DNA from: a bacterium
Lineage (GTDB): Bacteria > Bacteroidota > Ignavibacteria > Kapaibacteriales > UBA2268
Direction of reading: 5' to 3'
NCBI GenBank assembly: GCA_037127915.1
Contig: JBAXXL010000023.1
Span: forward strand, 319 to 64,318
Length of the DNA: 64,000 nt
Shown: piece by piece, positions 8,448 to 44,320 of the stretch
How positions within the stretch are numbered: the stretch's first letter is position 1
How the letters are laid out: each line of letters opens with the position of its first letter
Notes under the pieces: model-generated
Seen by the model: only the letters and a program-made list of their open reading frames with translations
The model's database searches: none
What the model was told of the DNA's origin: nothing
Translations under genes and position numbers: made by a program

Positions 8448-8791
8448 AATATTTACCTCAAAAAAAATCATTTAAAATCTCTTAATAATTTGCACATATA
8501 ACTAAAATCTTAGTTATATTATACATAAAATATCACAAGGTTACATTACATTATAAAAAAATAACCATTTTTTATTTTAATTTAACAAACAACGAAATAA
8601 TATCATTGAAGTAAGCAATCTGAATTTCTTACTAAATTTTTATAGTAATAACACAAAAATTATCAAAATGTTACAAATTAAAAAAATATTTTCAAATCTA
8701 ATAATAAATTTAGAAAAAAATTCTTAATTTTGAAACACTTATCTTACGAATAATTCTAGGATGATTAATTAAAATATTTATAGGAGATTCG

Positions 8792-15058: not shown

Positions 15059-15122
15059 TTTATTGTTTGTCAATTATAATTTCCAATTGCTAAAGGTGGA
15101 TTCTTCGCTTTTCAACTATCAA

Positions 15123-18100
15123 CTATTTAATAACCACCAGCTCCCTAGTTATAAATCCCGAAGGTGTGATAATCGTAATGTAATATGTTCCGCTTGTTAA
15201 ATGCTCCGCATTTATCTCATATCTCGTTTCGCCTTGTGATAAACGAATAGGATCTGTCTTAATTATTTTCCCTTCAGCAGTAGTGATTTGTATTTTCGCA
15301 TCGCACGTTTCAGCATAGTTTATAATTAGTTCAGCATTATTGCCCGTTGGATTCGGATAAAGTTTGATTGAGCTGAAGAGTTCGCATTCTTTAACAGATG
15401 TTGCGGCTGTTGTGTAATGCCAAGTTTCACTCCAAGGCGTTGTGTATTGTTTGCTCACACCTTTGACACGCCAGAAATAATCTGTACTTACTTCTAAATC
15501 TGCTTTCGAAAGTGTCCATTTGGTGTCAACAATTGAATCTTTATCGAATATCACATTCACAAAGTCTTCATCTGTTGCAACTTGCAGATTATAATATTCG
15601 GCTGTAGTTGCCGGGAACCACAATAAAAGCGTCGGAATATTCACACCGGTACTGCCGGTTTTAGGATTCCGTAGTACAAGTGTTACCTTACCCGTTGTAA
15701 AAGTCCAAACATTTGACCATTGCGAAGTGCCGAATGATTCTTCATTCCAAGCTCTAACACGCCAATAATATAGTATTTCCGGTTCCAATTCTTCAACGTA
15801 TTGTTCAGTTTTGGTCAACGAGTCCATAGAGTAAACCATATCGGTAAATAATTCATTTTTTGATATTTGCAATTGATAGAATTTAGAACCAATGACCTCA
15901 TACCATCTGAATTTTATCGTTGTGGATTGATCTTTAGATTTATCGGGTGGATTGAGTAAATTTGCTGATTGGATACCGGATTTAAATGACCGTATTTCCG
16001 ACCATAGCCCAAAACGCTGACCAACTACCAATCTAACTCGCCAAAAATAGTTTTTGTAATATTCCAATTTATTGGTCTGGAATTCGAGTATGTTTTTTAC
16101 TATTTGATCGTCAACAGTTGTTTTAAAATCCACTTCTTTGGAGATTTGAATTTGAAATTCGCTTCCCGCAACGTGTTCCATCCATGTAAATTTGGCATCT
16201 ATAGGCACATTAACTTTTTGGTTTTCTGGATAAATCAATTCAACCGCTTTTAATGAAGTGCTGAATGTCCATATATCGGAGTAATCGCTTGTCCCTTCAC
16301 TGTTAACTGAGCTAACATGCCAATAATATTCAGTCTCAGCGAGCATATTGTCAATAATTTTAAATGTATCCGCACCAGTACTACCTTCGAAAAATAAATC
16401 CGTGAACGCAGAATCCTTAGCAACTTGAATGAAATATGTTAGAGCTTCAGCGGATTTGTGCCAATTGAATTGCTCCGAAAGCTGTTTATCAATCGAATTA
16501 TTTTCGGGATATATTAATTTAGGAGGCCCCATTACGGTACGGAAGTTCCAAACTTCGGACCAGCGGCTTACATTATCTTTAGTGAATGCTTTAACCCTCC
16601 AATAATACTTAGTTAATCCATTTAATTTACTTGTGGTTATTGTAGTGTCGGGGTAGTTGTTTTGTTCAAACACTAATTTATCAAAGTTTTCATCTTCAGC
16701 TACTTGAATTTGGTAATTGGTTGAACCTACTATTTTATGCCATACTAATTCAGCGGACCGCGGAACTGACACTTTACCTTTTTCAGGACTTATCAAAATT
16801 GGCGGCTCCAAACCGATTGTAAATGTTTGTTTTTCTGTCCATTTGCTTCGAGCAGAATGAGTTTTACTGCGTATCCGCCAATAAAAATCGCTACCGTAAA
16901 ACAAATTTAGTACGACTTTACAAACACTGTCACCCGTTACATTTATTTCGAATGGATCAGGAAATTCTTCAATTTGGTCGAATTGTAACTCATATTCTTC
17001 GGCTAATGGAACAGTTTTCCAGGACATTATAGGATTTATTTCCTCGCCTTTTTGGCCATCTTTTGGTGCTATTATAACTGGCGGTTGGAGAGCTTTGCGA
17101 TTAAGAACCTTATACAAAGCATTTGTCCAAATGTAAGTATAGCCACTATAATCGGTACATATTCCACGGACTCGATCCATATTATAGCATCCCTTCATAG
17201 CCTGCCAACTCATTCCATTATTAGAAGCTGTGTATAGTTCATACAGAATTCCTTGATTTGATGTGCTGATTTGGATTGAAACAAAGAAGTCGCCATATAA
17301 ATCCACTTCAATATTTTTGATACTCCAACCATAGTTTGGAACCAAAATATCCGGTTTGAAATTGATCTGCTTCCAAGTCGAACTGAAATTCTGTGTGTAA
17401 TAGATTTTATTATCGCTAGTATTATAATAATATTGATTCCCGTCTTTTCCATAAACTAATTTCACTGAAGGTTTTATAAATACATGTTGATATGAAAGGC
17501 CGTGGTCTATGGATTTAACAAAATTTTCATTCTGGTTCATATACCAATTAGATTCTTTGTCAATAAATAAATTATCTAAAGCCGTTATTCCATAATCAGT
17601 AACGACCCACGATGCTCCAAAGTCATTTGATACATATAAACGATTATCAAATTCCAAGTATGGTTTTGGTATGCCAGGTGGCTGAGTGATGGTATCAGGA
17701 ACAAGATATGTAAATGTAGCAACTAATTTTTTTGCCAAAGTATCATATTCGATAAAATTAAATTCCCAGTATTTTTCTTTTTTCTCCGGTACCGTTAGCA
17801 ATTTATTGAAAGTTTTACCTCCGTCAATTGAACCATATAAACCTTCATCAGCGGCAATAAACATATTCCCTTCCGGAGTGATTTCTACATCATTTATTTT
17901 ACGACATCTAAAGGTACTTAAATAAGTCCAGTCATTTCCATGATTAATTGACTTATAAACTTTTCGTGAATCATAACCGGTTTTAGTAAATAAAATCAAA
18001 GAGTTGTCGTAATCACTTGTGTATAAATTGAGTTGATCTTCATATCCGGGAAAAACATTTTTGTCTTCCTCTGTGATTTTTTTGGCACATATTGTCCAAT

Positions 18101-19088
18101 GTTCTCCGTTATCTGTGCTTCGAGTAACATCACCTAAAGTGCGAGTTGCTAAAATAGTCCCGTTTGGAGAAACAGCGCAGGCTGTTATTCCAAGAGCAAA
18201 TTCTCCTGTATTTTGCCAGCAATTCCATATATCGTCCCAAAAATACATTCCCGCAGAACGTGTACCCATCAGCATTTGATATCGATTTACACCAACTGCC
18301 ACAACTGCAGTATCTAACAAAGGTCCAATGTCATTTAATTGATAGTGATGGTAATTATTAGGATAAGTATTCCAAGTCATACCGTCGCCCGAAAACATTA
18401 CTCCTCCACCATTTGTAGCGGCATAAATTTTTCCGGATTCGTCTTCGGCAAAATCGTTCAAGAAATAATTTTTCAATTCAGTATTTGACAAAACCCAACT
18501 TTTACAAGTGTCCCGTGAGGCATAGACTCCCCCGCCCGCAGTACCGGCAAGAATTCTGCCGTTTCGCATATATAGCAAGCAGGTAACGTTATCATTCCTC
18601 AGACCTTTGTCGGTTCTTGTCCAATTATCACCATTATCATCGGAATAATAAATTCCACCACCATAAGTTCCGCAAATCACTTTACCTTTATTAGTAACTG
18701 TCAAAGCCTGAACATACAAATTTTTCAAACCGTTGTTTTTTTGAGCCCACGTTGCGGCATTATCTTTTGAATAGTATATTCCTTCACCAAAAGTTGCAAC
18801 ATACAAATCCTTATTGGGTGCAATAATTATATCTTTTATACAAGGATTTTCAATTGGAAAAGTAGTCAATTTAACCCATTTTGTACCGCCATCATACGAT
18901 ACATATAGACCGGCACCATTGGTGCCGGCATATACAATTTGGTCGGTTTTGAACTTAAGCACTTCAACTTCGACACCAGTAGGAATAGTGACACGACCCA
19001 TAAAATCTTCCGGTGCACGGGGTATTGCACGTAGATTAAGATTAGTTGATAGGAGCAATAAAAATAAAATAATAGATAAATTCTTCAT
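15123..19088 (-). CDS. Giant T9SS cargo protein: BNR/Asp-box beta-propeller region, six tandem ~95-aa Fn3-like repeats (YYWRV motif) and a sorting domain
   Basis: 1321 aa. Asp-box motifs (SYDGGTKW, SKDNAATW, SDDNGDNW, STDNGEHW, SIDGGKTF). Six repeats, each ending ...YYW(R/H)V...W.F.T. Sorting domain KLYPNPTGNNAEL...GTYYITIITPSG. Inverted paralog of 32238..36194. Confidence 0.7.
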   Translation of the reverse strand: MKNLSIILFLLLLSTNLNLRAIPRAPEDFMGRVTIPTGVEVEVLKFKTDQIVYAGTNGAGLYVSYDGGTKWVKLTTFPIENPCIKDIIIAPNKDLYVATFGEGIYYSKDNAATWAQKNNGLKNLYVQALTVTNKGKVICGTYGGGIYYSDDNGDNWTRTDKGLRNDNVTCLLYMRNGRILAGTAGGGVYASRDTCKSWVLSNTELKNYFLNDFAEDESGKIYAATNGGGVMFSGDGMTWNTYPNNYHHYQLNDIGPLLDTAVVAVGVNRYQMLMGTRSAGMYFWDDIWNCWQNTGEFALGITACAVSPNGTILATRTLGDVTRSTDNGEHWTICAKKITEEDKNVFPGYEDQLNLYTSDYDNSLILFTKTGYDSRKVYKSINHGNDWTYLSTFRCRKINDVEITPEGNMFIAADEGLYGSIDGGKTFNKLLTVPEKKEKYWEFNFIEYDTLAKKLVATFTYLVPDTITQPPGIPKPYLEFDNRLYVSNDFGASWVVTDYGITALDNLFIDKESNWYMNQNENFVKSIDHGLSYQHVFIKPSVKLVYGKDGNQYYYNTSDNKIYYTQNFSSTWKQINFKPDILVPNYGWSIKNIEVDLYGDFFVSIQISTSNQGILYELYTASNNGMSWQAMKGCYNMDRVRGICTDYSGYTYIWTNALYKVLNRKALQPPVIIAPKDGQKGEEINPIMSWKTVPLAEEYELQFDQIEEFPDPFEINVTGDSVCKVVLNLFYGSDFYWRIRSKTHSARSKWTEKQTFTIGLEPPILISPEKGKVSVPRSAELVWHKIVGSTNYQIQVAEDENFDKLVFEQNNYPDTTITTSKLNGLTKYYWRVKAFTKDNVSRWSEVWNFRTVMGPPKLIYPENNSIDKQLSEQFNWHKSAEALTYFIQVAKDSAFTDLFFEGSTGADTFKIIDNMLAETEYYWHVSSVNSEGTSDYSDIWTFSTSLKAVELIYPENQKVNVPIDAKFTWMEHVAGSEFQIQISKEVDFKTTVDDQIVKNILEFQTNKLEYYKNYFWRVRLVVGQRFGLWSEIRSFKSGIQSANLLNPPDKSKDQSTTIKFRWYEVIGSKFYQLQISKNELFTDMVYSMDSLTKTEQYVEELEPEILYYWRVRAWNEESFGTSQWSNVWTFTTGKVTLVLRNPKTGSTGVNIPTLLLWFPATTAEYYNLQVATDEDFVNVIFDKDSIVDTKWTLSKADLEVSTDYFWRVKGVSKQYTTPWSETWHYTTAATSVKECELFSSIKLYPNPTGNNAELIINYAETCDAKIQITTAEGKIIKTDPIRLSQGETRYEINAEHLTSGTYYITIITPSGFITRELVVIK

Positions 19089-19168
19089 ATATTCACCAAA
19101 AATATAATTATAAACGCACTATACCTTGATTAACACATATTTTGAAATTTTGTTACATTATTTTACAA

Positions 19169-20260
19169 TTAAATTTCATTAATTGGGAAAATAAATCTAT
19201 AATACGTGCCTTGATTCTTAACAGAACCGAATTCTAATTTCCCTTTGAGCATAGATTCTGCAAGGTATTTAGCCCCTTGGAACATAAGGTCTTCTGTTTG
19301 AGCATTGTTTGTTATTTTCTTTAAAATCATATCGAAGCCATAATTGTCGGATAACAAAATATTGCGCGATATTTTTATTACTAAATAAATTTGCTCTTTT
19401 TGGATATCTATTGTTAGTTCGCAATCGTTATCATCCATTCTAATTAGATTTATGCACAAATATCTTATTAATCTCATTAGTAATTGGTACGGTGCTTCAA
19501 AGTTTTTATTCGCTGCATTTTCAGTCACATCAATTTTTATAATTTTCTTTGGATAAAGACTATGAATATGGTCCTTTATATTCTCAAATAATTCTATTGT
19601 ATTAATTATCTGCTTTTGAACTTCAGCATTATTCTTTTCTAAGCAAAGCTGATTTTGGAAAGCAGTTAGATCTTTGATATTGTCTAAACTTGTTTCTGTA
19701 AATGACATTAGTTCATCGAACTCTTCTTGCGGCATTGAAGAATCATTTTGAGCAAGGATATCAAAAACGTTTTTAATCACACTAATATCATTGGCTAAAT
19801 CAAAACCGATTAAATCAAAAAATACTTTCATGAAGGTTTCGTTACTGATATCTTTCAATACAACAATCAAATATTCATCGTAATCGTCTGCATTAAAGAC
19901 AGTAACATCGTATTCAACGTTTAAATCATTAATATTTTCATGATTATATATGGTAGCTTTTGTGCGAACAAGTGAATGATTGATTTGAGCCGATTTCAAT
20001 GAAACTAATACTTTGCAATATTTACAATAGTCCGAATGCCCACATCCTAATTCATTTAAAGAAGAAAATACACAATGGAATAATTCTCCGGGTCTTTTGC
20101 CGAAAAATTCGGAGTATTCCTCGCAATTACTTGCTTTTTTATATACCTCATTAGCTAAAACAACCCTAAAGTCACTATCTATTACTATAGCTATATCAGT
20201 AATGGCATCTATGCTGGATTGTACTTTCCCCAGCCGTTCATCAATTTCAGTATTTTTCAT
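19169..20260 (-). CDS. PAS-like sensor domain protein with degenerate histidine-kinase-like C-terminus (no obvious phospho-accepting His)
   Basis: 363 aa. N-terminal PAS-like region with Cys/His cluster CGHSDYCKYCKV. C-terminal N-box-like (LIRYLCINLIRM) and G-box-like segments. The expected H-box position reads FFDLIGFDLANDISVI. Confidence 0.35.
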   Translation of the reverse strand: MKNTEIDERLGKVQSSIDAITDIAIVIDSDFRVVLANEVYKKASNCEEYSEFFGKRPGELFHCVFSSLNELGCGHSDYCKYCKVLVSLKSAQINHSLVRTKATIYNHENINDLNVEYDVTVFNADDYDEYLIVVLKDISNETFMKVFFDLIGFDLANDISVIKNVFDILAQNDSSMPQEEFDELMSFTETSLDNIKDLTAFQNQLCLEKNNAEVQKQIINTIELFENIKDHIHSLYPKKIIKIDVTENAANKNFEAPYQLLMRLIRYLCINLIRMDDNDCELTIDIQKEQIYLVIKISRNILLSDNYGFDMILKKITNNAQTEDLMFQGAKYLAESMLKGKLEFGSVKNQGTYYRFIFPINEI

Positions 20261-20384
20261 ATTTGAATTTTATAAAATAATGGAACATAATATTTTTAAA
20301 AATAGCATTTTTTTTTTACATTATTATAAATCATAAAAATATTTATATTTTTGTTATGGTAAAAAAAACATAAATGAGATAAAA

Positions 20385-20711
20385 ATGAAAAAACTTCAAA
20401 TTTTACTTGCAACAATTTTGTCATTAACGCTATTTTCTTGTTCGGGATGCGGAGATAATGAACCAAAAGATAAGGCTCCCGTAGAAGATACAACCCTTTT
20501 CAAAGGTAATATTAAAGCAGTTAGCATAGAGCTTGCTAAAGTACCTAAAGAAGTTGTTGATGGAATTAAAGCGCAATATCCTGATGCAAAAATAATGACC
20601 GCAAAGGTATTGGATAACGAATTGGATAAAACTTATTCGCTCGAATTGGATAATAATGGCGAGCAATTGAAAGTAGAAATTACTGAATCCGGTCAAATAT
20701 TAATAAAATAA
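20385..20711 (+). CDS. Small lipoprotein (possibly PepSY-like)
   Basis: 108 aa. Lipobox LTLFSCSG. Confidence 0.45.
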   Translation: MKKLQILLATILSLTLFSCSGCGDNEPKDKAPVEDTTLFKGNIKAVSIELAKVPKEVVDGIKAQYPDAKIMTAKVLDNELDKTYSLELDNNGEQLKVEITESGQILIK

Positions 20712-20713
20712 AA

Positions 20714-22933
20714 GTGAATAACCCAATACAATATCTAAAAGGTGTCGGTCCCAGCCGTGCGGAAGGATTGATAGAATCCGGAATAAAATCCAGTTTAGAC
20801 GCTCTATTCTATTTCCCAACAGCATATATCGATAGAGAAGCAATGCTTAGTATCGAAGCAGCGTATAGAAATATTTACCGCAGACAGTTTTTTACTTCTG
20901 TTGATCCTTACAAAGATGCCGATTTCAAGCACGAAATAACAATTGTTGGCGAGGTCGTCGGAAAAGAAATGCATCGGGGAAAACGTGCTTTTCAATCATT
21001 ATCATTAAAAATCAAAGATGAAACCGGCACCGCAAAAATTAATTTTTGGAGCATGGTTAATATATTTGACAAATTATACGAAAAAGGTATTACTATTGCC
21101 GTTTTTGGTAAAGCATCAATCGACAAATATAATAATTTAGCATTTGACCATCCGGAAATAGAAATCATTCAAGCGGATGATGCCGAAAAGTTCGCATTGG
21201 GTGGAATAATTCCCAAATATCGCTTAACTGACAAAATGAAAAAAGTCCGAATTGGACAAAAAGTTTTGCGGACTATAATCGAACACGCATTAGCAGAACA
21301 TTTGCCTCACCTCGAAGAAACATTGCCGGGTGCGGTCATAAAACATTATCATTTCCCAAAAATTTTAGATACTATAAAAACTCTGCATTCTCCCCAGAGC
21401 CGTGAAGATTTGGATAAGGCACGAAAACGTATTAAGTTTGAAGAACTGTTTTACTATTTCATTCGATTAGCTATTCGTAAGAAAAATTATCAGCGTCCGG
21501 GAACGGGAATTGTGATTCAGCCAAAAAGTAGTTCTGCGCGTTTGCTTTATGATAATTTACCTTTCAGATTAACTGCCGACCAAAAAACCGTGCTTAACGA
21601 AATCGCCAAAGATTTTACAAGCGGCGTGCCTATGCACAGATTGTTGCAGGGCGACGTGGGAAGCGGAAAAACTATTGTTGCATTATTAGCAATGCTTATG
21701 GTGATTGATAAAGGTTATCAAGCTGTTTTAATTGCTCCTACGGAAATTTTGGCGGAACAGCACTATAAAACCATTTCAAAATTACTCGAAATGGTAGATT
21801 TACACGAAATTAAAATAACGTGCATTACCGGCGGCGCTTTAACAAAATCAAAGAAAGGTCATTTATCGTCAATATCCTGCGGCGATTCCAATATCGTTAT
21901 CGGTACTCACGCCTTGTTTCAAAATAGCGTTAGTTATAACAAATTAGCGTTTATAGTGATTGATGAACAGCAAAGGTTTGGCGTGGTTCAAAAAGCAAAG
22001 CTGGTAGAATTGGCAGAAGCTTCCTTCCACGGCGAATTGCGCGATATTAAACCGCATATTTTAGTTACAACCGCCACACCTATTCCTCGTAGTATTATGA
22101 TGACTGTTTCAGGCGATTTGGATGTTTCGGTTATTAAAACTAAACCGCGGAATCGAAAACCGATAATAACAAAAATTAAATTTGATAGTCAGCGGGACGA
22201 AGTGTATAGTTTCATTAGAACATCTGTAAAAGATGGTCGTCAGGTATATTTGGTTTATGCTCTTGTTGATGAAAGCGAAAAAATCGAATCAAAAGCCGCC
22301 ACCACAATGCACGAGCATTTGGCAACGGACATTTTCCCGGATTTAAGATGCGGATTATTACACGGTCAAATGTCAGGCGATGAGAAAGATAAGGTAATGA
22401 GTTCATTTTTGAATAAAGAATTCGACATTTTGATATCAACGACGGTTATCGAAGTCGGTATTGATGTTCCAAATGCTAATTTGATTATTATTGAGAACGC
22501 TGAACGTTTTGGTCTATCACAGCTTCATCAATTGCGAGGTCGTGTCGGACGCGATGAATACCAATCCTATTGTGTTTTATTAGTTGACGACAAATATCAA
22601 CATTTGGTAAATAAAACTCCAAAAGACAGCTTCGACAACCAAGCGGCTTTAGTAAGATTGAAAGCTATGGAAGATACTAATGACGGGTTCAAAATATCGG
22701 AAATTGATTTAAAATTGCGTGGACCGGGTGATATAATAGGTACTCGTCAAAGCGGTAGTATGGATTTTAAATACGCCGATATAGTTGAAGATATAGAGGT
22801 TTTAACGGAAGCGCGCGACATAGCAAATCAAATAATTTCACTCGATCCGGAATTGCTTTCTCCAAACCATTATGTGATAAAAAAGTACATAACAGAGCAT
22901 TTTGGGGATAATATGACTTATGATGTAGCATAA
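20714..22933 (+). CDS. recG: ATP-dependent DNA helicase RecG
   Basis: 739 aa. N-terminus IQYLKGVGPSRAEGL (RecG helix-hairpin-helix-like), Walker A GDVGSGKT, DExx box VIDEQQRFGV, helicase C-terminal motifs (QLHQLRGRVGR). Confidence 0.9.
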   Translation: MNNPIQYLKGVGPSRAEGLIESGIKSSLDALFYFPTAYIDREAMLSIEAAYRNIYRRQFFTSVDPYKDADFKHEITIVGEVVGKEMHRGKRAFQSLSLKIKDETGTAKINFWSMVNIFDKLYEKGITIAVFGKASIDKYNNLAFDHPEIEIIQADDAEKFALGGIIPKYRLTDKMKKVRIGQKVLRTIIEHALAEHLPHLEETLPGAVIKHYHFPKILDTIKTLHSPQSREDLDKARKRIKFEELFYYFIRLAIRKKNYQRPGTGIVIQPKSSSARLLYDNLPFRLTADQKTVLNEIAKDFTSGVPMHRLLQGDVGSGKTIVALLAMLMVIDKGYQAVLIAPTEILAEQHYKTISKLLEMVDLHEIKITCITGGALTKSKKGHLSSISCGDSNIVIGTHALFQNSVSYNKLAFIVIDEQQRFGVVQKAKLVELAEASFHGELRDIKPHILVTTATPIPRSIMMTVSGDLDVSVIKTKPRNRKPIITKIKFDSQRDEVYSFIRTSVKDGRQVYLVYALVDESEKIESKAATTMHEHLATDIFPDLRCGLLHGQMSGDEKDKVMSSFLNKEFDILISTTVIEVGIDVPNANLIIIENAERFGLSQLHQLRGRVGRDEYQSYCVLLVDDKYQHLVNKTPKDSFDNQAALVRLKAMEDTNDGFKISEIDLKLRGPGDIIGTRQSGSMDFKYADIVEDIEVLTEARDIANQIISLDPELLSPNHYVIKKYITEHFGDNMTYDVA

Positions 22934-23013
22934 TAATCAATAATTTATTTGGTCATTAAGCGAAGTATTCATATTTTTGTTATTTATAATATAGACTAAT
23001 TAAGTAAATTACA

Positions 23014-24639: not shown

Positions 24640-24646
24640 GGGTTCT

Positions 24647-28396: not shown

Positions 28397-28434
28397 TTTT
28401 AAATTTTGAATGTTGAGTTTTGAATGTAGGGGCA

Positions 28435-28465
28435 GAAAATTTTCTGCCCTTTCTTTATCAGAATT
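28435..28465 (+). terminator. GTAG-preceded hairpin terminator (TGTAG GGGCAGAAAA|TTTTCTGCCC plus T-rich)
   Basis: Perfect 20-nt palindrome immediately after the 24647..28396 stop. The 5' TGTAG flank is the one seen on the other family-A hairpins. Confidence 0.7.
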
Positions 28466-28519
28466 AGAATGAAGGGATTAGAAGATTATAGGATAGATTG
28501 TCATACCCGAGGGATCGGG

Positions 28520-28640
28520 AATCCATCTTCGAATAATTGAAAATAGTAAGTTGAAAATGAGGAGAAAGAGAAGATAAACCCCGTAATTCGTAATTTGAAA
28601 TTCGTAATTGTTGGTCAAAAAGGCTATCCTTTTTTGGGAT
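28520..28640. repeat. Family-A repeat copy (W-X-Y modules) ending in GGCTATCC...GGATAGCC hairpin
   Basis: GGGAATCCATCTTCGAATAATTGAAAAT...GTTGAAAATGAGGAGAAAGAGAAGATAAA...CGTAATTCGTAATT. The hairpin at 28611-28640 reads as a T-tailed terminator on the minus strand for the DUF4160/DUF2442 operon. Confidence 0.6.
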
Positions 28641-28651
28641 AGCCATATAGG

Positions 28652-28894
28652 TTAACTGTTTACTATTGTGCTGTTTTCATAAATTTCGTTTGGGCAAATA
28701 TCCTCTCCGGTAATCCATTCCAAAGTAATATCTCTTACCGTGACAGTTTTAAAAATTGAGGGATTTATAAGATTTTTATATGCCGGATGTGTTAACCACT
28801 TATTCATATCATAAATGCGTTTCTCACCATTCTGAAATACTATTTCAAGAAGGAAATCATCTAATGCTTTAACAGTTTTAGGACGCGGTACCAT
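28652..28894 (-). CDS. DUF2442 family protein
   Basis: 80 aa. Pattern VKALDDFLLEIVFQNGEKRIYDM...TVRDITLEWITGEDICPNEIYE matches the DUF2442 profile known to me. Confidence 0.65.
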   Translation of the reverse strand: MVPRPKTVKALDDFLLEIVFQNGEKRIYDMNKWLTHPAYKNLINPSIFKTVTVRDITLEWITGEDICPNEIYENSTIVNS

Positions 28895-28897
28895 AAT

Positions 28898-29164
28898 CTA
28901 TTCCAAACCTTTAATTGTGAAATATGAGCCTTCTTCTTGAGTTAGTTTCCATAGAGCGCATAGTTCGTCATAGTGCAACACGGCCCAAGCGGCTACTAAT
29001 TTATTTTGTTTATTAGGAAGCGAACCTATAATAATTTCGCCATCCAAAGTATAAGTAGCCGAAAACTCTCCATAGACTGCGTGGAAGTGAGGAATATGAT
29101 GGCTTTCACTATCCTTGAAGAACATTCTTATCAATATTCCATAAAATTGTGAAATCAAAGGCAT
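28898..29164 (-). CDS. DUF4160 family protein
   Basis: 88 aa. Conserved HHIPHFHAVYGE motif. The canonical DUF4160-then-DUF2442 gene order is preserved, with a 3-nt gap. Confidence 0.7.
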   Translation of the reverse strand: MPLISQFYGILIRMFFKDSESHHIPHFHAVYGEFSATYTLDGEIIIGSLPNKQNKLVAAWAVLHYDELCALWKLTQEEGSYFTIKGLE

Positions 29165-29324
29165 ACTATTTTCCTATTATTATTAACTTTGGCAATATTG
29201 CAAATAAATTACTAATTTTATATATGATTAAACGAATAATCGTAATTCATATTTTGATTATGGATATCATAGTCCAAATTGGATAAATGTTTTTGTTTTG
29301 AAAATAAAAAAGGCTAAACTTATT

Positions 29325-29640
29325 GGGGATGTGCTGTAAGCTTGCTCCGAAAGAGCTAAATCTCAATAACCGCGGGCAAAACCTGTGGGAAGTCCTAAAA
29401 CCTTATTCCCTTAATTAACCTTAGTAGAAAAATGACCGATTTGTCCGCAAACCTTATTACCTTATTGGAAAACGAAAATAAGCGAATAAGGTTAGATGAG
29501 TATATATTTCAGCTTTCCTACTAAGGTTTGAATAGAAAATAATGAACAAAATATTTTTTGTAGAGACGTTGCATGCAACGTCCCTACAAACAGTATTTTA
29601 ATAAAATCAAAAAGGCTATCCTTTTTGGGGGATAGCCTAA
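29325..29640. repeat. ~300-bp repeat B1 (includes AACCTTA cluster, GTAG hairpin 29559-29588 and GGCTATCC terminator hairpin 29613-29637)
   Basis: About 85-90% identical to 30413-30720 by eye. Internal perfect palindrome GACGTTGCATGCAACGTC preceded by TTTGTAGA. Confidence 0.65.
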
Positions 29641-29663
29641 AACAATTAATAATAATTATAACG

Positions 29664-29897
29664 TTATCCAAACATCGGCTGATTAATAAAGCTAATATCT
29701 TTAGTAGGGATATGGTTGAATATCATTTGAGTAAAATCAACTTTTCCCTTGACGTTCAACACTTCAATACCAATAACATTACCTTGGTCATCAACATCTA
29801 CTATATAATCAGGAGATATTTCGAATGAATCCACCCCCGGAATATCTACAAAATTTATATATAACGCATCTGTTTCATTATCATAATTGAATTTCAT
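29664..29897 (-). CDS. DUF2283 family protein
   Basis: Start adjusted to MKFNYDNETDALYINF..., the hallmark DUF2283 N-terminus. The longer ORF call to 30023 overlaps the upstream gene. Confidence 0.6.
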   Translation of the reverse strand: MKFNYDNETDALYINFVDIPGVDSFEISPDYIVDVDDQGNVIGIEVLNVKGKVDFTQMIFNHIPTKDISFINQPMFG

Positions 29898-29907
29898 TTC
29901 AATCCTC

Positions 29908-30135
29908 TTATTTAAAATTTCTATCAAAAAATGCTGTATGAATTGTTTCTTCGTCTTCAAGTAAAATAATTCTAACAAATTTATTATAATCTGACGAAAA
30001 ACCCCAGACTTTAATTTTTCCATCTTCCTGAATTTCTTTTTTGAGCGGATGCAGGATAATCTCTGCTAGAAGTTCAGGGGTCAAATATGGACGCTTCGGA
30101 AATACATCAACAATAAAATGATTTGTGAATTTCAT
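29908..30135 (-). CDS. DUF4258-like protein (partner of DUF2283)
   Basis: 75 aa. Family assignment rests on gene pairing and size plus the C-terminal ...IHTAFFDRNFK. Confidence 0.45.
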   Translation of the reverse strand: MKFTNHFIVDVFPKRPYLTPELLAEIILHPLKKEIQEDGKIKVWGFSSDYNKFVRIILLEDEETIHTAFFDRNFK

Positions 30136-30224
30136 AACTTTTTGTTAGATAAAACTATTTATAATATCAAAATTACTAAATTTGTTTGAATTAATACCAA
30201 TATATTTTCAGCATGGTGCGGGTT

Positions 30225-30410
30225 GCTTCATTTTCTGAATTAGGGTTCAAAGATTAAAAGATGATAGGAGGGTTTATCATTCCCTAGGCAACGTGAAACC
30301 ATCTTCGAATTATTGAAAATGGGAAATGGAAAGTTGAAAATGAGAAGAAAGAGAAGATAAATCCCGTAATTCGTAATTGATTGGTCAAAAAGGCTATCCT
30401 TTTTTTGAGG
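30225..30410. repeat. Family-A repeat copy (W-X-Y, then GTAATTCGTAATTGATTGG and a partial GGCTATCC hairpin)
   Basis: TTTTCTGAATTAGGGTTCAAAGATTAAAAGATGATAGG...GTGAAACCATCTTCGAATTATTGAAAAT...GAAAGTTGAAAATGAGAAGAAAGAGAAGATAAATCCCGTAATTCGTAATTGATTGG. Confidence 0.6.
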
Positions 30411-30412
30411 AT

Positions 30413-30720
30413 TTGCTCTAAGTTTTTTCTGAAAGAGCTAAATCTCAATGACTGCGGGTGAAACCGAAGAAAATCCTAAAACCTTATTTCCTTTATTAAC
30501 CTTAGTAGAAATATGACCGCTTTATCCGCAAACCTTATTACCTTATTGGAAAACGAAAATAAGCTAATTAGGTTTAAGGCAAAAAAAAATCACCTTTCAT
30601 ACTAAGGTTTGAATAGAAAATAATGAGAAAAATATTTTTGTAGAGAAATAACATGCTACGTCTCTATTTGCCGAATTTACAATAAAATCAAAAAGGGCTA
30701 TCCTTTGTGGGGATAGCCTG
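30413..30720. repeat. ~300-bp repeat B2 (AACCTTA cluster 30478-30611, degenerate GTAG hairpin, GGCTATCC terminator hairpin 30691-30719)
   Basis: Direct repeat of 29325-29640. The hairpin reads as a T-tailed terminator on the minus strand for the lipoprotein operon 30746..32067. Confidence 0.65.
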
Positions 30721-30745
30721 AGCTTTAGGTTAATAATGAGTTTTT

Positions 30746-31396
30746 TTATTTCTTCCTGTTTATATATTCTTCATAACCTTTTCGCATTTGCCATTGAAGA
30801 AATGTATCTTTCATCAATTCGTTGGTTGAGTCGGGTTTGTGTTTTAATGGACGAAAACGCCAGATGGAGTCAGTCAAATGGATTATTCTTTTACCATTTT
30901 CAATATAAGAACCAACATGATAAAGCCCGTGATTATCTAATATTTTGAAAATGTTTTTGGTAGCTTTCCCTTTTTGTAATAAATACTTTAGGTTATAAAG
31001 AAATAGGCTATCATTTGAAATTTGATAAGAACCATAAGTAAATTTCTCATACAATGATGCCCCATTATAACAAAAGTTATGTTCTATCTTATAATCTAAT
31101 AAATTTAAGGAATCAGCTTCACATCTTGATTCTTCGTAAATACCATTAGTAAAAAATATATAAACAAAATATCGATTAGGAGAATCTTCATTATCTATCA
31201 TATCCGTCGGGATGTTTTTTTTGTTTAAATAGTAATAACCATTAATAGGAAAATTTGTATGCTCTTGATACATACCCCAACCGGGCAGAGATTTCTTTGG
31301 ATCGTATCTGTAATCGTGAGCCGAATGGCAACCTGAGATTACTATTAGTGGCAAAATCATAACCCAAAAAAGTCGATTTGTTTTTAGTTTTTTCAT
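30746..31396 (-). CDS. Lipoprotein, tandem paralog 1
   Basis: 216 aa. Lipobox VISGCHS. N-terminal ~50 aa and C-terminal ~35 aa nearly identical to 31399..32067. Central region divergent. Confidence 0.55.
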   Translation of the reverse strand: MKKLKTNRLFWVMILPLIVISGCHSAHDYRYDPKKSLPGWGMYQEHTNFPINGYYYLNKKNIPTDMIDNEDSPNRYFVYIFFTNGIYEESRCEADSLNLLDYKIEHNFCYNGASLYEKFTYGSYQISNDSLFLYNLKYLLQKGKATKNIFKILDNHGLYHVGSYIENGKRIIHLTDSIWRFRPLKHKPDSTNELMKDTFLQWQMRKGYEEYINRKK

Positions 31397-31398
31397 TT

Positions 31399-32067
31399 TT
31401 ATTTCTTCCTGTTTATATACTCTTCATAACCTTTACGCATTTGCCCTTGGAGAAATGTATCTTGCATCAGCTCGTTAGTTGAATCCGGTTTGTGTTTTAA
31501 TGGACGAAACCTTAAAAAAACCGAATCTGTAAAAAGCTGAATTGGTACATTGTCCATTCCAAAATAATATCCAACTGGATGAAGTTCTTTATTATTTAGT
31601 ATTTGAAAAATAGATTTTGGCGGTTTGCCATTTTTCGGAATATAAACATCAATTGAATAAAGAAAAAGGCTATCGTTAGATATTTGATAAGAGCCAAAGT
31701 CATGTGTATTATCAAAAATTTTTTCACCTATATTAATGTTGTTTTCAATATTATAATCCAATTGATTTAATGATTCAGCTTTACATAAGAAATCTTTGTA
31801 AATTCCATTGATATAATAAATATTTATATTGTAAATCGGAATACTATCATTAGTTTCTAAATTAGATTTAAATTCATGGGGTATATGTGTAGCATCATTA
31901 TAATAATATCCATTTATAGGAAAATTTGGATGCTCTTGATAGACACCCCAGCCGGGCAGAGATCTCTTTGGATCATATCCGTTATCGTCAATCGAATGAC
32001 ATCCGGGGATTACTATTAATGGCAAAATCATAACCCAAAAAAGTAGATTTGTTTTTAATTTTTTCAT
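31399..32067 (-). CDS. Lipoprotein, tandem paralog 2
   Basis: 222 aa. Lipobox VIPGCHS. Shares termini RFRPLKHKPDSTNELM.DTFLQ.QMRKGYEEYINRKK with paralog 1. Confidence 0.55.
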   Translation of the reverse strand: MKKLKTNLLFWVMILPLIVIPGCHSIDDNGYDPKRSLPGWGVYQEHPNFPINGYYYNDATHIPHEFKSNLETNDSIPIYNINIYYINGIYKDFLCKAESLNQLDYNIENNINIGEKIFDNTHDFGSYQISNDSLFLYSIDVYIPKNGKPPKSIFQILNNKELHPVGYYFGMDNVPIQLFTDSVFLRFRPLKHKPDSTNELMQDTFLQGQMRKGYEEYINRKK

Positions 32068-32237
32068 ATCCTAAGCCTCTCAAAATAAAAATCCAGATAA
32101 TCAATCAATAAAATTTATCGAAATTACGATATTTTGAATAAATGACAAATTATTTATCAAAGAGAATGTAACAAAATCCCAAAATATGTGTTATTTTGTA
32201 TATAGTGTGTTTATAATAATTATACTTTGGTGAATAT

Positions 32238-35200
32238 ATGAAGAATTTATCGATTATTTTATTTTTATTACTCTTATTAACCACTCTTGCACAAGGTTCG
32301 CTTACACGTGCACCGGAAGATTTCATGGGTCGCGTTACTTTACCTACAGGTGTAGAAGTGGAAGTACTTAAGTTCAAATCAGATCAAATTGTTTACGCAG
32401 GTACAAATGGTGCCGGCTTATATGTATCCTACGATGGTGGATCAAATTGGGGTAAACTAACCGCTTTTCCAGAGGAATTTCCCTGCATAAAAGATATTCT
32501 TATCACAAAGAACAAGGATTTATATGTTGCCACTTATGGTGGTGGTGTTTACTATTCGAATGATAATGGTGCTACTTTTATCCCTAAAAATAATGGGATC
32601 AAAAATTTATTGATTCAAGCATTGGCTGTTACACAGAGCGGCAAATTACTTTGCGGTACTTACGGCGGCGGAATTTACTATTCCGATAATGATGGAGATT
32701 ATTGGACGAGAACCGATGCAGGATTGCGTTATGACAACGTAACCTGTATAACCGAAATGAATAATGGTTTTATTTTAGCCGGTACTTGGGGTGGTGGATT
32801 TTACGTATCCCGAGATACTTGTAAAACATGGCTTGTATCTAATACCCAATTAACGAACATATTTATTAATGACTTAGTCAAAGATGAATCAGGTAAAGTG
32901 TTTGCTGCTACAAACGGAACCGGAGTTATGTTTACCGGTGATGGTATTACATGGCACAACTATAGTAATAAATATCATCACTACCAAGTAAACGACATAA
33001 GCCCGTTATTGGATACCGCTGTTGTCTCTGTTGGAGTAAATAAATATCAGTTGCTTATGGGTACCAGATCGGCAGGAATGTATTTTTGGGATGATATATG
33101 GAATTGCTGGCAAAATACCGGAGAATTTGCTCTTGGCATAACAGCTTGCGCTGTGTCACCAAACGGGACTATTTTAGCAACTCGAACTTTAGGTGATGTT
33201 ACTAGAAGTACCGATAATGGTGAACATTGGACTATTTGCGCAACAAAAATTATTGAATATGATTTAGCTGAGTTCACAGGATTTGAAGACCAATTAAATC
33301 TTTTTACTAGTAAATTCGATAATTCATTGGTATTGTTTTCAAAGTCAAATACCATCAGGAAAGTCTATAAATCTGAAAATCACGGTTATGATTGGAGATA
33401 TTTAGGATCATTGACCGTTAGGAAAATCAATGATGTTGAAATCACCCCTGAAGGGAACATATTTGTTACCGCTGATGAAGGTGTATATGGTTCGATAGAT
33501 GGAGGTAAAACTTTTAATTCGATATTAACGGTACCTGATAAAAAGGAAAAATACTGGGAATTTTACGATATCGAATATGATGCTGTTACTAAAACTATTG
33601 CAACTACATTTGTATATTTTGTTCCCGATACTATCACTCAGCCGCCAAATAAGCCTAAGCCATTTTTAGAGTGTATAAATCGGATATACAAATCAACAAA
33701 TAATGGTACTTCATGGACGAATGCTGATTATGATACAACAGGTATTGATTTTTTCCATATTGATAAACAATCTAATTGGTATATGAGAAAAGGTATTAGT
33801 TTTGTTAAATCGGTAGACCATGGATTATCTTTTAATGCGTTATTTCCACATAAAGTCAAAAGATTAATTTATGGAAAAGATGGTAATCAATATACTTTTG
33901 ACGATCAGAATCAATTGTTTTATTCTTCGAAATTCAGTTCAACTTTTAATCAAATTCCATTTAAACCGGAAATATTGGTTCCAAGTAATGATTGGAGTAT
34001 TAAGAATATATCTATTGACTCAAATAGTAGAATATATGTTTCGATATGGATTAGCACTCCCTCGCAAGGAGTTATTTACGAACTATATAAGACAGATGAT
34101 TTTGGAAATAACTGGCAAACATTAAAAGGATGTTATAACATGGATAGAATCCGTGGAATATGTTCTGATTATAGCGGATATACATATATATGGACGAATG
34201 CTTTATATAAAGTACTAAATCCTATATCGTTAGATGCGCCATTTACTATAACACCGAAAGATGGTCAAAAGGGCGAAGAAATTAATCCTGATTTTGCTTG
34301 GGAGCGCGCAAAATTTGCTGAAGAATACGAACTTCAAATTGACCAGACCGATTTATTCTATTCACCATTTGAAACTAATGCTACTGGTGATACAACTCTT
34401 AAGGCGGTCATAGAATTGAAATATAACCAAGAGTACTATTGGCGGATAAGGAGCAAAACGCACTCGGCGCGTAGTGCTTGGACAATTAATTCATTTACAA
34501 CGGGAATGGAACCTCCGTTTTTGATTAGCCCTGAGAAAGACGAACTTGGTGTTCCGCTGAATGCCGGTTTAAAATGGCATAAAAAAGAAGAGGCAACGCA
34601 TTATTCAATTCAAGTGGCTGAAGATGAGAATTTTGATAAAATTGTTTATTCGCAAGATAATCATCCCGATACAACTATTACAACTAATAAATTAATCGGA
34701 TTAAAAACTTATTACTGGCGCGTGAAAGCATTTACTTCAAACAATGCCAGCAGTTGGTCCGAAGTTTGGAACTTCCAAACTGTTTTGGGACCGCCGAAAT
34801 TAGTCTATCCTGAAAATAATTCTCTTGATAAATTGCTTTCGGAGCAGTTCAAATGGCATAAATCCGCTGAAGCTCAGACTTATTTTATTCAAGTCGCAAA
34901 AGATTCAGCATTCACGGATTTATTTTTTGAAGGTTCATCAGGTGTGGATACATTTAAAATTATCGATAATATGCTACCCGAGACTGATTACTTTTGGCAT
35001 GTAGCATCGGTAAATACTGAAGGAATCAGTGAATATTCAGAAATATGGACGTTCAGAACATCATTTAAACCTTTAGAATTGCAGACCCCAGCTAACGAAA
35101 AGGTTAATGTCCCTCTTGATACTAAATTTACTTGGTTGGAACACAACGGCGGTAGTCAATATCAAATTCAAATATCAAAAGTTAACGATTTCAAAACAAC

Positions 35201-36194
35201 TGTGGTTGATGAGAAAGTTAATAATTTGCTCGAATACCAAACAAATAAATTGGAATACTACAAAGAGTATTTCTGGCGTGTAAGATTAATTGTCGGTACT
35301 CGTGTTGGTCTATGGTCAGAGGTTTGGGCGTTTAAAACAGGTATTCAAAGTGCAGGACTACTGAATCCGCCGGACAAATCTATCGACCAGCCGACCACAA
35401 TTAAATTCAAATGGTCTGAGATAATAGGTGCGAAATACTATCAATTGCAGATTTCGAAAAACGATAATTTCACGGATTTGGTTTATTCTATGGATTCGCT
35501 GGATAAAGCAGAACAATATGTTGAAGACCTTGAACCAGAATTACTTTATTATTGGCGGGTACGTGCTTGGAATGATGAATCTTATGGAACATCCCAGTGG
35601 TCACAAGTGTGGACATTCACAACCGGCAAGGTTACGCTGATACTCCGCAATCCGAAAACAGGAGCAACAGGAGTTGTTATTCCAACACTTTTAACTTGGT
35701 TTACAGCAACAACTGCGGAATATTATCATCTGCAAGTTGCAAAAGATGCCAATTTTACGAATGTTATTTTTGATAAAGATTCGATTTATGATACCAAATG
35801 TACGCTGTCGAAAACAGATGTCGAAACAAACACAAATTACTTTTGGCATGTAAAAGGCGTAAGCAAAAAATATACAACTCCTTGGAGCGATACGTGGCAA
35901 TTCTCAACCGGAGAAGTATCGGTTAAAGAAAGCCCACTATTCAGCTCAATAAAACTTTATCCAAATCCAACGGGCAGTAAAGCAGAGCTAAGTATCAACG
36001 ATGCTGAAACCTGCGACGCGAAAATATTAATCAGCACAGTGGATGGGAAAATCATTAAAACGGATGTTATCCGATTATTAATTGGCGAAACACGTTATGA
36101 AATTGACACGGAAAAGTTATCTTCCGGATCATACTATATTACGATTATCACACCGTCGGGGTATGTGACGCGGGAATTGATAGTAGTGAAATAA
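32238..36194 (+). CDS. Giant T9SS cargo protein (BNR/Asp-box region, six Fn3-like YYW repeats, sorting domain); inverted paralog of 15123..19088
   Basis: 1318 aa. The first ~70 aa and a 66-aa internal block (LLMGTRSAGMYFWDDIWNCWQNTGEFALGITACAVSPNGTILATRTLGDVTRSTDNGEHWTICA) are near-identical to the minus-strand paralog. Sorting domain about 88% identical to that of 24647..28396. Confidence 0.7.
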   Translation: MKNLSIILFLLLLLTTLAQGSLTRAPEDFMGRVTLPTGVEVEVLKFKSDQIVYAGTNGAGLYVSYDGGSNWGKLTAFPEEFPCIKDILITKNKDLYVATYGGGVYYSNDNGATFIPKNNGIKNLLIQALAVTQSGKLLCGTYGGGIYYSDNDGDYWTRTDAGLRYDNVTCITEMNNGFILAGTWGGGFYVSRDTCKTWLVSNTQLTNIFINDLVKDESGKVFAATNGTGVMFTGDGITWHNYSNKYHHYQVNDISPLLDTAVVSVGVNKYQLLMGTRSAGMYFWDDIWNCWQNTGEFALGITACAVSPNGTILATRTLGDVTRSTDNGEHWTICATKIIEYDLAEFTGFEDQLNLFTSKFDNSLVLFSKSNTIRKVYKSENHGYDWRYLGSLTVRKINDVEITPEGNIFVTADEGVYGSIDGGKTFNSILTVPDKKEKYWEFYDIEYDAVTKTIATTFVYFVPDTITQPPNKPKPFLECINRIYKSTNNGTSWTNADYDTTGIDFFHIDKQSNWYMRKGISFVKSVDHGLSFNALFPHKVKRLIYGKDGNQYTFDDQNQLFYSSKFSSTFNQIPFKPEILVPSNDWSIKNISIDSNSRIYVSIWISTPSQGVIYELYKTDDFGNNWQTLKGCYNMDRIRGICSDYSGYTYIWTNALYKVLNPISLDAPFTITPKDGQKGEEINPDFAWERAKFAEEYELQIDQTDLFYSPFETNATGDTTLKAVIELKYNQEYYWRIRSKTHSARSAWTINSFTTGMEPPFLISPEKDELGVPLNAGLKWHKKEEATHYSIQVAEDENFDKIVYSQDNHPDTTITTNKLIGLKTYYWRVKAFTSNNASSWSEVWNFQTVLGPPKLVYPENNSLDKLLSEQFKWHKSAEAQTYFIQVAKDSAFTDLFFEGSSGVDTFKIIDNMLPETDYFWHVASVNTEGISEYSEIWTFRTSFKPLELQTPANEKVNVPLDTKFTWLEHNGGSQYQIQISKVNDFKTTVVDEKVNNLLEYQTNKLEYYKEYFWRVRLIVGTRVGLWSEVWAFKTGIQSAGLLNPPDKSIDQPTTIKFKWSEIIGAKYYQLQISKNDNFTDLVYSMDSLDKAEQYVEDLEPELLYYWRVRAWNDESYGTSQWSQVWTFTTGKVTLILRNPKTGATGVVIPTLLTWFTATTAEYYHLQVAKDANFTNVIFDKDSIYDTKCTLSKTDVETNTNYFWHVKGVSKKYTTPWSDTWQFSTGEVSVKESPLFSSIKLYPNPTGSKAELSINDAETCDAKILISTVDGKIIKTDVIRLLIGETRYEIDTEKLSSGSYYITIITPSGYVTRELIVVK

Positions 36195-41507: not shown

Positions 41508-41534
41508 CCTTATCAATATCGAAAGGAATGAAAA

Positions 41535-42836: not shown

Positions 42837-42866
42837 ATTAAATTATCGAAAATTGAAGGTAAAAAA

Positions 42867-44171: not shown

Positions 44172-44320
44172 CTTTTTTTAGAGAAAAAATTAAATTTAAG
44201 GAATAATTGACGGAGATTTCTTATATTTGCATATTGGTTTTAAAATAAAGTATTTTTTCAAAAAATAATAGGTTTTTTTCAGAAAAAAAAATGTGTTTTT
44301 AGAATATATTAGGTGTCTTT

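Follow-up and report, generated by a model that had tools for sequence, protein, structure and literature searches.

The bab/hop genes of Helicobacter pylori, the tpr genes of Treponema, and the opa genes of Neisseria form mosaic families of paralogous outer-surface proteins that are shaped by intragenomic recombination. The pilE/pilS, vlsE, and msp2 systems of Neisseria, Borrelia, and Anaplasma, respectively, consist of one expression site and many promoterless silent cassettes, while Hin/Gin, shufflons, and the invertible promoters of Bacteroides rely on a site-specific recombinase and short near-perfect inverted repeats placed around a small promoter or gene-end segment. Here, we compare these systems with a pair of inverted paralogous genes (A and B) for predicted cargo proteins of the type IX secretion system (T9SS), which are located in a 64,000-nucleotide stretch (hereafter the window) of contig JBAXXL010000023.1 from a metagenome-assembled genome (MAG) of an uncultured Candidatus Kapaibacterium (Bacteroidota). 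A first-pass annotation of this locus had proposed ongoing gene conversion between A and B, together with inversion of the segment between them as a plausible mechanism of antigenic or phase variation.

By analogy with bab/hop, tpr, and opa, the A/B family would comprise several full-length, separately expressed paralogs that combine a conserved scaffold with a variable, ligand-facing region and show incongruence along the gene. It differs from these families in its fold, its T9SS route, its environmental Kapaibacterium host, and the ancient date of the A-B exchange. With pilE/pilS, vlsE, and msp2 it shares a variable central cassette between conserved flanks that could anchor recombination; however, 9 of the 9 retrievable copies are full length with their own start codon and predicted signal peptide, and 8 of 9 carry an upstream motif described below. 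Silent-cassette antigenic variation, which depends on a single expression locus and promoterless donors, was rejected for this reason. As in the invertible-segment systems, inverted repeats bracket a segment beside surface-protein genes, but the repeat arms are only 72-76% complementary, no recombinase was found among the window open reading frames (ORFs) that were scanned, and the bracketed 13 kb contains housekeeping and other genes.

The interpretation that we prefer, with a probability of roughly 0.7, is that A and B are old mosaic members of a T9SS surface-protein family that evolves by segmental exchange between paralogs, the A-B exchange being old and no inversion switch being involved. 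Gene A (15123..19088, minus strand; 1321 aa; NCBI MEI6090660) and gene B (32238..36194, plus strand; 1318 aa; MEI6090672) are arranged head-to-head, with their 5′ ends facing the 13.1-kb segment between them. The ORF list and Pfam bear out the first-pass description of two full-length inverted ORFs with the same architecture and moderate overall divergence, namely 73.4% DNA identity over 4,070 aligned columns (blastn, end to end, from ~96 nt upstream of the start codons) and 71% protein identity. Across 60-bp sliding windows, A-B identity ranges from 0.55 to 0.95, with the best windows at 90-95%, and no exact DNA match exceeds 26 bp, a usual length for pairs of this family (16-47 bp in most of them). 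The matching antisense ORFs mentioned in the same annotation (18061..18279 and 33047..33355) are present as a trivial result of sense-strand similarity.

A search of 5.8 billion proteins recovered 14 close homologs of ~1,310 aa that are 57-73% identical, after which the next match falls to 30%. A single MAG holds nine complete paralogs (D, P0010, P0007, P0014, A, B, P0012, P0002, and P0006) and two partial ones, the latter being contig-end fragments of a P0013-like copy; this assignment is based on the shared MEI60 accession prefix (MEI6089814 to MEI6091749), which also identifies P0002 (MEI6091108, on a 48.7-kb contig), the protein most similar to A, as a paralog in the same genome rather than an ortholog. 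The nearest species representative, a MAG of Candidatus Kapaibacterium sp. in which three paralogs lie dispersed, was the sole other species found in the genome scan, and a scan of metagenomes detected no close locus, only short contigs at 61-67% identity. The population itself has been assembled independently several times (ERZ4201038, ERZ4223250, and GCA_964645665.1). Other family pairs in this genome are tandem (P0014-P0007 and P0010-D). With the remaining pairs tandem or dispersed, the inverted A/B layout is not a property of the family. Judging from these comparisons, A and B appear to be members of a lineage-specific multigene family that represents a previously undescribed kind of T9SS cargo.

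A 1.2-kb cassette of A (17124..18347, minus strand; aa ~248-655), comprising blades 6-7 of the first beta-propeller and a hypervariable second propeller, is shared with B (32979..34196, plus strand; ends approximate). Outside this cassette A is P0002-like, while B is closest to P0008, P0012, P0013, and D. When alignment columns were resampled, the nearest neighbor of A was P0002 in 500/500 bootstraps for aa 101-250, 641-760, 761-1000, and 1001-1321, whereas for aa 251-335, 336-450, and 451-640 it was B (476-500 of 500). Among informative sites at which B and P0002 differ, 133 of 155 inside the cassette agree with B and 173 of 209 outside it agree with P0002; by these sites the breakpoints in A lie at aa 243-248, between propeller-1 blades 5 and 6, and at aa 655-665, at the boundary between propeller 2 and the first immunoglobulin-like (Ig) domain. 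Protein identity in the scaffold (aa 100-245 and 665-1321) is 83-91% for A-P0002, 69-76% for A-B, and 78-86% for B versus P0008, P0012, and P0013, and the corresponding DNA identity of A and B (68-75%) is no higher than that of A with any other paralog. In the central region, A and B are mutual nearest relatives with 61% protein identity, compared with 31% for A-P0002, and even when its conserved internal block is left out, the cassette is 68% identical in DNA between A and B versus 51-63% in most pairs.

The same pattern extends beyond A and B. Two types of central region can be told apart, with ~33% identity between them: A, B, and P0004-P0008 have type I, and P0002, P0009-P0014, and D have type II. 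These types cross the scaffold clusters, with A differing from P0002 and B/P0008 from P0012/P0013/D, which indicates that reassortment is a feature of the whole family. In locus L003 from the other species, P0004 lies beside the same 363-aa, recG, Peptidase_S13, and SBBP genes as those upstream of A, and in locus L027, P0008 lies beside a homolog of the 216/222-aa genes upstream of B. The A and B cassettes (61% identical; 93% in the internal block) are closer to each other than A is to its positional counterpart P0004 (49% and 72%) or B to P0008 (41% and 73%), which supports intragenomic exchange. Which paralog of the same genome is nearest thus changes along a single gene, and the change is statistically supported, as expected of segmental exchange.

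On this interpretation, each gene would encode a protein exported by the T9SS, which would begin with a Sec signal peptide and continue through two beta-propellers in tandem and a stalk of 5-6 Ig/fn3-like domains to a type A sorting domain. The scaffold (propeller-1 blades 1-5, Ig stalk, and C-terminal domain) is conserved, propeller 2 is hypervariable with two deep types, and exchange of segments between paralogs would have given scaffold and cassette different histories. A combines a P0002-like scaffold with an aa 248-655 cassette nearest to that of B. The three patches of A-B similarity would then have separate sources: the upstream patch would be a promoter/operator conserved on family copies, the 5′ coding patch would be the signal peptide and first blade common to a subfamily, and the internal patch would be the strongly constrained 5′ edge of the A-B cassette.

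A 317-bp tract of B (34842..35158, plus strand; B nucleotides 2605-2921) is 100% identical to paralog D (MEI6089814), which is located on another contig. When the window was compared with a second assembly over 24 kb, all 24 substitutions fell within B at 34910-35102, the sole other difference being a 2-bp indel at 28777-28778. The B and D copies of the tract are identical within each assembly, and the same 24 sites change in D (tract copies at L030 17223-17473, L032 8200-8450, and L029 12643-12893). Elsewhere D resembles P0013 (91%), but within the tract ~58 consecutive informative sites are B-like. The tract flanks of 68 bp and 56 bp are the same in both assemblies and identical between B and D; they are nearer to the relatives of B (86-96%) than to P0013 (81-88%) in all but one of four comparisons (P0008 at the right flank), which favors a real exchange from B to D, at any rate in the flanks. 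A search of the protein sequences of the other paralogs returned no donor matching either allele of 34910-35102. One explanation for the inner 193 bp is assembler collapse of a de Bruijn bubble, in keeping with SPAdes-style contigs at 7-9x coverage and with tract flanks of at least 55 bp each; the other is that conversion did take place, recently and in both directions. Tracts specific to one paralog, of which 34910-35102 may be a case, can be collapsed in short-read MAG assemblies, and gene conversion may in this way be mimicked or hidden. Fine-scale identity in this MAG therefore calls for caution.

Even so, nothing else in the family hints as strongly at recent exchange as the B-D tract. 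The tract would fit a working system of combinatorial diversification, in which ~10 co-regulated full-length surface proteins reassort propeller 2 by exchange that is still active in the natural population, and in which the conserved propeller-1 blades 6-7 and propeller/Ig boundary could anchor recombination. The hint is that B and D agree over the tract within each assembly, although the two assemblies, 100% identical elsewhere, disagree there at 24 sites. We regard active diversification as a tentative and unlikely proposal.

An account that dispenses with recombination altogether would treat A and B as ordinary old duplicates, with patchiness arising from uneven purifying selection. The internal block had been described as encoding a near-identical peptide of 66 aa at 18080-18280 and 33048-33250. 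The identical run is real but comprises 63 aa (aa 273-335 in both proteins, within propeller-1 blades 6-7), encoded at 18084..18272 (minus strand) in A and 33054..33242 (plus strand) in B, and its DNA is 88% identical (167/189) with 22 silent differences; the two longer intervals are 2 nt out of register and 86% identical. The block is conserved family-wide and lies in the best-kept part of the propeller region, as selection alone would predict, yet the A-B pair is an outlier, with 88% DNA identity compared with 60-76% in other pairs (bar the recent duplicates D-P0013) and 93% protein identity compared with at most 75%. At identical residues, A and B use the same codon in 36 of 57 cases (63%) in the block and in 53% of cases in the rest of the gene, with 45% expected if codon choice were fully random, and the excess in the block is not significant (binomial p = 0.09). 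The similarity of the block in DNA is mostly due to its unchanged protein sequence, and so, in the main, is the patchiness that had been pointed out, which is real in itself. Conservation can also explain the upstream and 5′ patches. Uneven constraint, however, cannot produce 83-91% aa identity of A with P0002 in the scaffold together with 31% in a cassette where A-B identity is 61-93%. Nor does it account for the strong bootstrap values with sharp breakpoints, the spread of two cassette types over scaffold clusters, or the independent B-like patch in the P0013-like gene D. We therefore consider the absence of recombination improbable.

Silent sites set the age of the A-B exchange. The proportion of silent differences (pS, Nei-Gojobori) between A and B is 0.67 overall and 0.57-0.75 in every segment past aa 30, and the lowest 40-codon window, aa 281-320, has a pS of 0.27 (permutation p = 0.04, picked post hoc). 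With silent sites near saturation and 22 silent differences in 189 bp of the best block, the exchange must be old. Silent-site identity in the A-B tracts is not far above background, in contrast to what recent or ongoing exchange would leave. What survives of the original proposal of a mosaic made by gene conversion is a stretch whose ancestry A and B have specifically in common. Ongoing conversion between them is not supported.

The two patches at the 5′ end are not specific to A and B. Instead of three blocks nearly identical in DNA, identity is 75% upstream of the genes (60/80, with 10 gap columns), 81% over the first 200 bp of coding sequence, and, as given above, 86% internally. The upstream patch contains the family-wide motif TGTAACAAA...GTTA, whose copy ATGTAACAAAATTTCAAAATATGTGTTA (19131..19158, minus strand) lies 43-70 nt before the ATG of A and is followed by a conserved TATAG(T); an alignment and a scan of the window place its counterpart before B, ATGTAACAAAATCCCAAAATATGTGTTA, at 32166..32193 (plus strand). 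The pattern ATGTAACAAA-N5-AAA-N4-KKGTTA has two matches in the window, one before A and one before B (0.01 expected by chance), and in every locus fetched the motif is restricted to positions before family genes. Eight of 9 paralogs can be aligned across it, with TATAG and then GGTGA between it and the ATG, and it also occurs in the other species, with a near-perfect palindrome, TGTAACAAA-N9-TTTGTTACA, in locus L001. Being family-wide and present in another species, it is a cis-element rather than an A-B conversion tract, and may function as an operator or promoter through which the family is co-regulated. A sigma-70 promoter scan yielded no signal above chance but does put TTCAAA-17-TATAGT within the motif before A, and no intrinsic terminators were found.

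At ~32085-32135, B is preceded by another conserved element, CAATCAATAAACTTTATCGAAATTACGATATTTTGAATAAATGACAAAT, which is also present upstream of D, P0014, P0013, P0008, and P0012 (L030, L024, L026, L027, and L028) and absent before A; its occurrence before B and five paralogs indicates that the duplicated unit takes in at least 170 nt of 5′ flank. In the coding sequence, identity over nt 1-60 is 82% for A-B, 95% for B-P0012, and 80% for both A-P0012 and A-P0013, and over nt 61-300 it is 78% for A-B and 82-83% for B-D and B-P0013. The 5′ coding similarity, which extends to P0012, P0013, D, and P0002, belongs to a subfamily with the signal peptide MKNLSI(I/V)LFLLL and not to the A-B pair. The use of the upstream and 5′ blocks as signs of A-B conversion is accordingly not supported.

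It is on this background that present-day homogenization of A and B by gene conversion, with recombination flipping the 13-kb segment and swapping promoter-proximal parts as phase or antigenic variation, has to be judged, and we hold it to be highly improbable. The inverted placement of A and B with an A-B-specific block, the 40-codon window of lowered silent divergence, and the one possibly very recent conversion tract of B, involving a different partner, are what could be expected under this scenario. Short-read Logan contigs of this population (runs SRR12676969 and SRR12676970), found through recG and the 222-aa gene, also stop just inside the two genes, after 17 nt of A and 159 nt of B, which would be expected at repeats as well as at a variable junction, and they are uninformative on orientation. 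Against it stand the high silent divergence, a best block that is 88-92% identical, the family- or subfamily-wide nature of the upstream and 5′ similarity, and the tandem or dispersed placement of other family pairs. The inverted arms are 72-76% complementary over 250-1725 nt, with short arms at 80-90%, and thus differ from near-perfect repeats. RecA-mediated recombination needs a minimum of ~25 bp of perfect identity, and its efficiency drops steeply with divergence. With this requirement and a longest exact match of 26 bp, an A-B crossover could occur on an evolutionary timescale but could not serve as a switch; inversion of the 13 kb, which needs recombination across ~27%-diverged repeats, would at best be a rare evolutionary event.

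The content and context of the segment (19089..32237; 13.1 kb) offer no positive evidence for the inversion and phase variation suggested in the first-pass annotation either. When the 36 largest ORFs in the window were scanned with Pfam, a set that included all segment ORFs of at least 80 aa and excluded ORFs below 100 aa outside the segment, no recombinase was detected, and the segment contains recG and a cell-wall carboxypeptidase gene. A search for short inverted repeats flanking promoters, as in the invertible promoters of Bacteroides, gave nothing convincing. The ERZ4201038 contig is collinear with the window over 22236-46194 (the B side) at 99.9% identity. Synteny of the A 5′ flank in the other species is uninformative on inversion, because a crossover inside the genes would carry the flank along.

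The least probable explanation is that chimeric short-read assembly of a repetitive family in a 7-10x coverage MAG created the mosaic: the 24 inter-assembly differences confined to one 193-bp stretch of B, co-varying with D between identical 68- and 56-bp flanks, do look like a collapsed de Bruijn bubble at k = 55, and the P0013-like gene of the MAG is split over contig ends, but an artefact that could explain the B/D tract could not explain the A/B mosaic, as the A cassette is a distinct sequence with 68% DNA identity to that of B and no better match among known paralogs rather than a mis-joined copy, exact A-B matches of at most 26 bp are below assembler k-mer sizes, an independent assembly shows the same B side, and the A-side neighborhood recurs in another species.

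Several points weigh against the reading of A and B as old mosaic members that evolve by segmental exchange. All sequences are short-read MAG contigs, the B tract could be an assembly collapse, and the relative ages of the A-P0002 and A-B relationships are read from protein identity alone. The number of exchanges and the direction that we infer for them could also differ: A may have arisen long ago as a local inverted duplicate of B, after which its flanks were either replaced with P0002 sequence or transferred to P0002. The window at aa 281-320 selected post hoc may reflect a second, younger short conversion, and the AlphaFold2 model of A is weak at aa 242-348 (window ~18045-18365), where the predicted local distance difference test score (pLDDT) is below 50.

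With regard to the encoded proteins, Pfam gives the same result for A and B, with beta-propeller/BNR-type matches toward the N-terminus, several Ig_Rha78A_N/fn3 repeats, and a Por_Secre_tail domain. A is predicted to consist of a signal peptide, beta-propeller 1 (aa ~40-335), beta-propeller 2 (aa ~350-650), 5-6 Ig/fn3-like domains, and a type A T9SS C-terminal domain. The candidate signal peptide MKNLSIILFLLLLSTNLNLRA is hydrophobic and modeled as a helix over aa 2-21. Pfam and TIGR04183 place the C-terminal sorting domain at aa 1243-1319 in A (15132-15362, minus strand) and aa 1240-1316 in B (35955-36185, plus strand). Both domains score above the curated cut-offs, as expected of putative type A T9SS cargo: 34.9 bits in A and 34.1 bits in B for PF18962 Por_Secre_tail (cut-off 27), and 37.5 and 29.7 bits, respectively, for NCBIfam TIGR04183 (cut-off 23). 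No T9SS machinery genes (PorK/L/M/N, Sov, or PorU/V) were detected within the 64-kb window.

The AlphaFold2 model of aa 1-770 of A, built from a 14-sequence alignment, is all-beta with a mean pLDDT of 70. The poorly modeled aa 242-348 correspond to the segment best kept between A and B, and the hypervariable propeller 2 is modeled at pLDDT 80-92. Seven GTxGGGxYxSxDxGxxW-like blades are readable in aa 54-331 (propeller 1), and aa ~350-650 would form propeller 2. The top PDB matches of the model in Foldseek are the sensor domain of BT4663 (4a2m; E = 1e-19, template modeling (TM) score 0.42), PorZ (5m11), and GH74 xyloglucanases; for the double-propeller sensor and PorZ matches, E-values of 1e-19 to 3e-16 go with TM-scores of 0.3-0.42 and sequence identities of 12-14%. 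A profile search of PDB sequences agrees, with 3v9f as the best match along with GH74, the GH74 profile matches being weak (E = 1e-5) and covering single blades. The match to the NCBIfam F510_1955 glycosylhydrolase family is below its cut-off (117.6 versus 175 bits).

The sensor domains of the Bacteroides hybrid two-component systems BT4663 (4a2l/4a2m) and BT3049 (3v9f), as well as PorZ, have two tandem beta-propellers followed by an Ig-like domain, an arrangement also predicted for A and B, and PorZ ends in a T9SS C-terminal domain, as the A/B proteins do. Unlike these proteins, A and B are without a transmembrane or kinase part, have 5-6 extra Ig/fn3 domains, and belong to a set of ~10 paralogs rather than being single-copy components. 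The likeness, as modeled, is thus a fold resemblance and not family membership. A protein of the A/B type would be displayed on the cell surface and may bind a glycan or similar ligand. As a source of the hypervariable region, a diversity-generating retroelement was considered and rejected, there being no reverse transcriptase among the scanned ORFs and the paralogs differing by indels and at all residue types.

In addition, T9SS cargo genes are unusually dense in the window, where at least 10 ORFs carry Por_Secre_tail, including those at 7569-8471, 11908-14634, A, 24647-28396, B, 36419-39958, 49900-51294, and 58849-60189. The 3′ end of A (last domain and sorting domain, 15121-15417) is 76% DNA-identical to 28102-28398, the 3′ end of an unrelated DUF7948/SBBP cargo gene, and C-terminal modules are in this case common to different cargo families. 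Directly downstream of the SASA/Ig T9SS cargo gene at 36419-39958, four tandem paralogous genes of 433-434 aa (CarboxypepD_reg x2 and Laminin_G_3) occupy 40203-45625.

Within the intervening segment, the gene directly upstream of A encodes a 363-aa protein (19169-20260, minus strand), whose position is kept in another species (79% aa identity) and whose sub-threshold likeness to sensor histidine kinases (E = 7e-5) stays well under the NCBIfam cut-off. It is followed on the plus strand by a PepSY-like gene (20385-20711), recG (20714-22933), a Peptidase_S13 D-Ala-D-Ala carboxypeptidase gene (23014-24639), and the DUF7948/SBBP T9SS cargo gene (24647-28396). The small DUF2442/DUF4160 pair (28652-29164) and the DUF2283 gene (29664-30023), both on the minus strand, are toxin-antitoxin-like, and a direct repeat of ~335 bp with 82% identity (29307-29638 and 30385-30719) lies among them. 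Two tandem paralogous genes of 216 and 222 aa (30746-32067, minus strand) without a Pfam or NCBIfam match are divergent from B; a 214-aa homolog, 56-64% identical, occupies the same place upstream of P0008 at 308-952 of L027, a JGI metagenome contig. A GC-rich palindrome, GTAGAGACGTTGCATGCAACGTC(C/T)CTAC, is present at 29548-29599 in AT-rich intergenic DNA, and a relative, TGACGTTGCATGC(T/A)ACGTCTCTAC, is found ~130-150 nt upstream of D (L030) and P0013 (L026). It may be a small dispersed palindromic element.

If the preferred interpretation is true, the A/B locus opens no new phase-variation mechanism and would be an ordinary case of a well-known process, the evolution of a mosaic paralogous surface-protein family, in the little-studied Kapaibacteria. 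Its family-specific palindromic upstream motif predicts a dedicated regulator. As a by-product, the analysis defines an apparently undescribed family of T9SS cargo proteins in which a hypervariable second beta-propeller is reassorted among paralogs.

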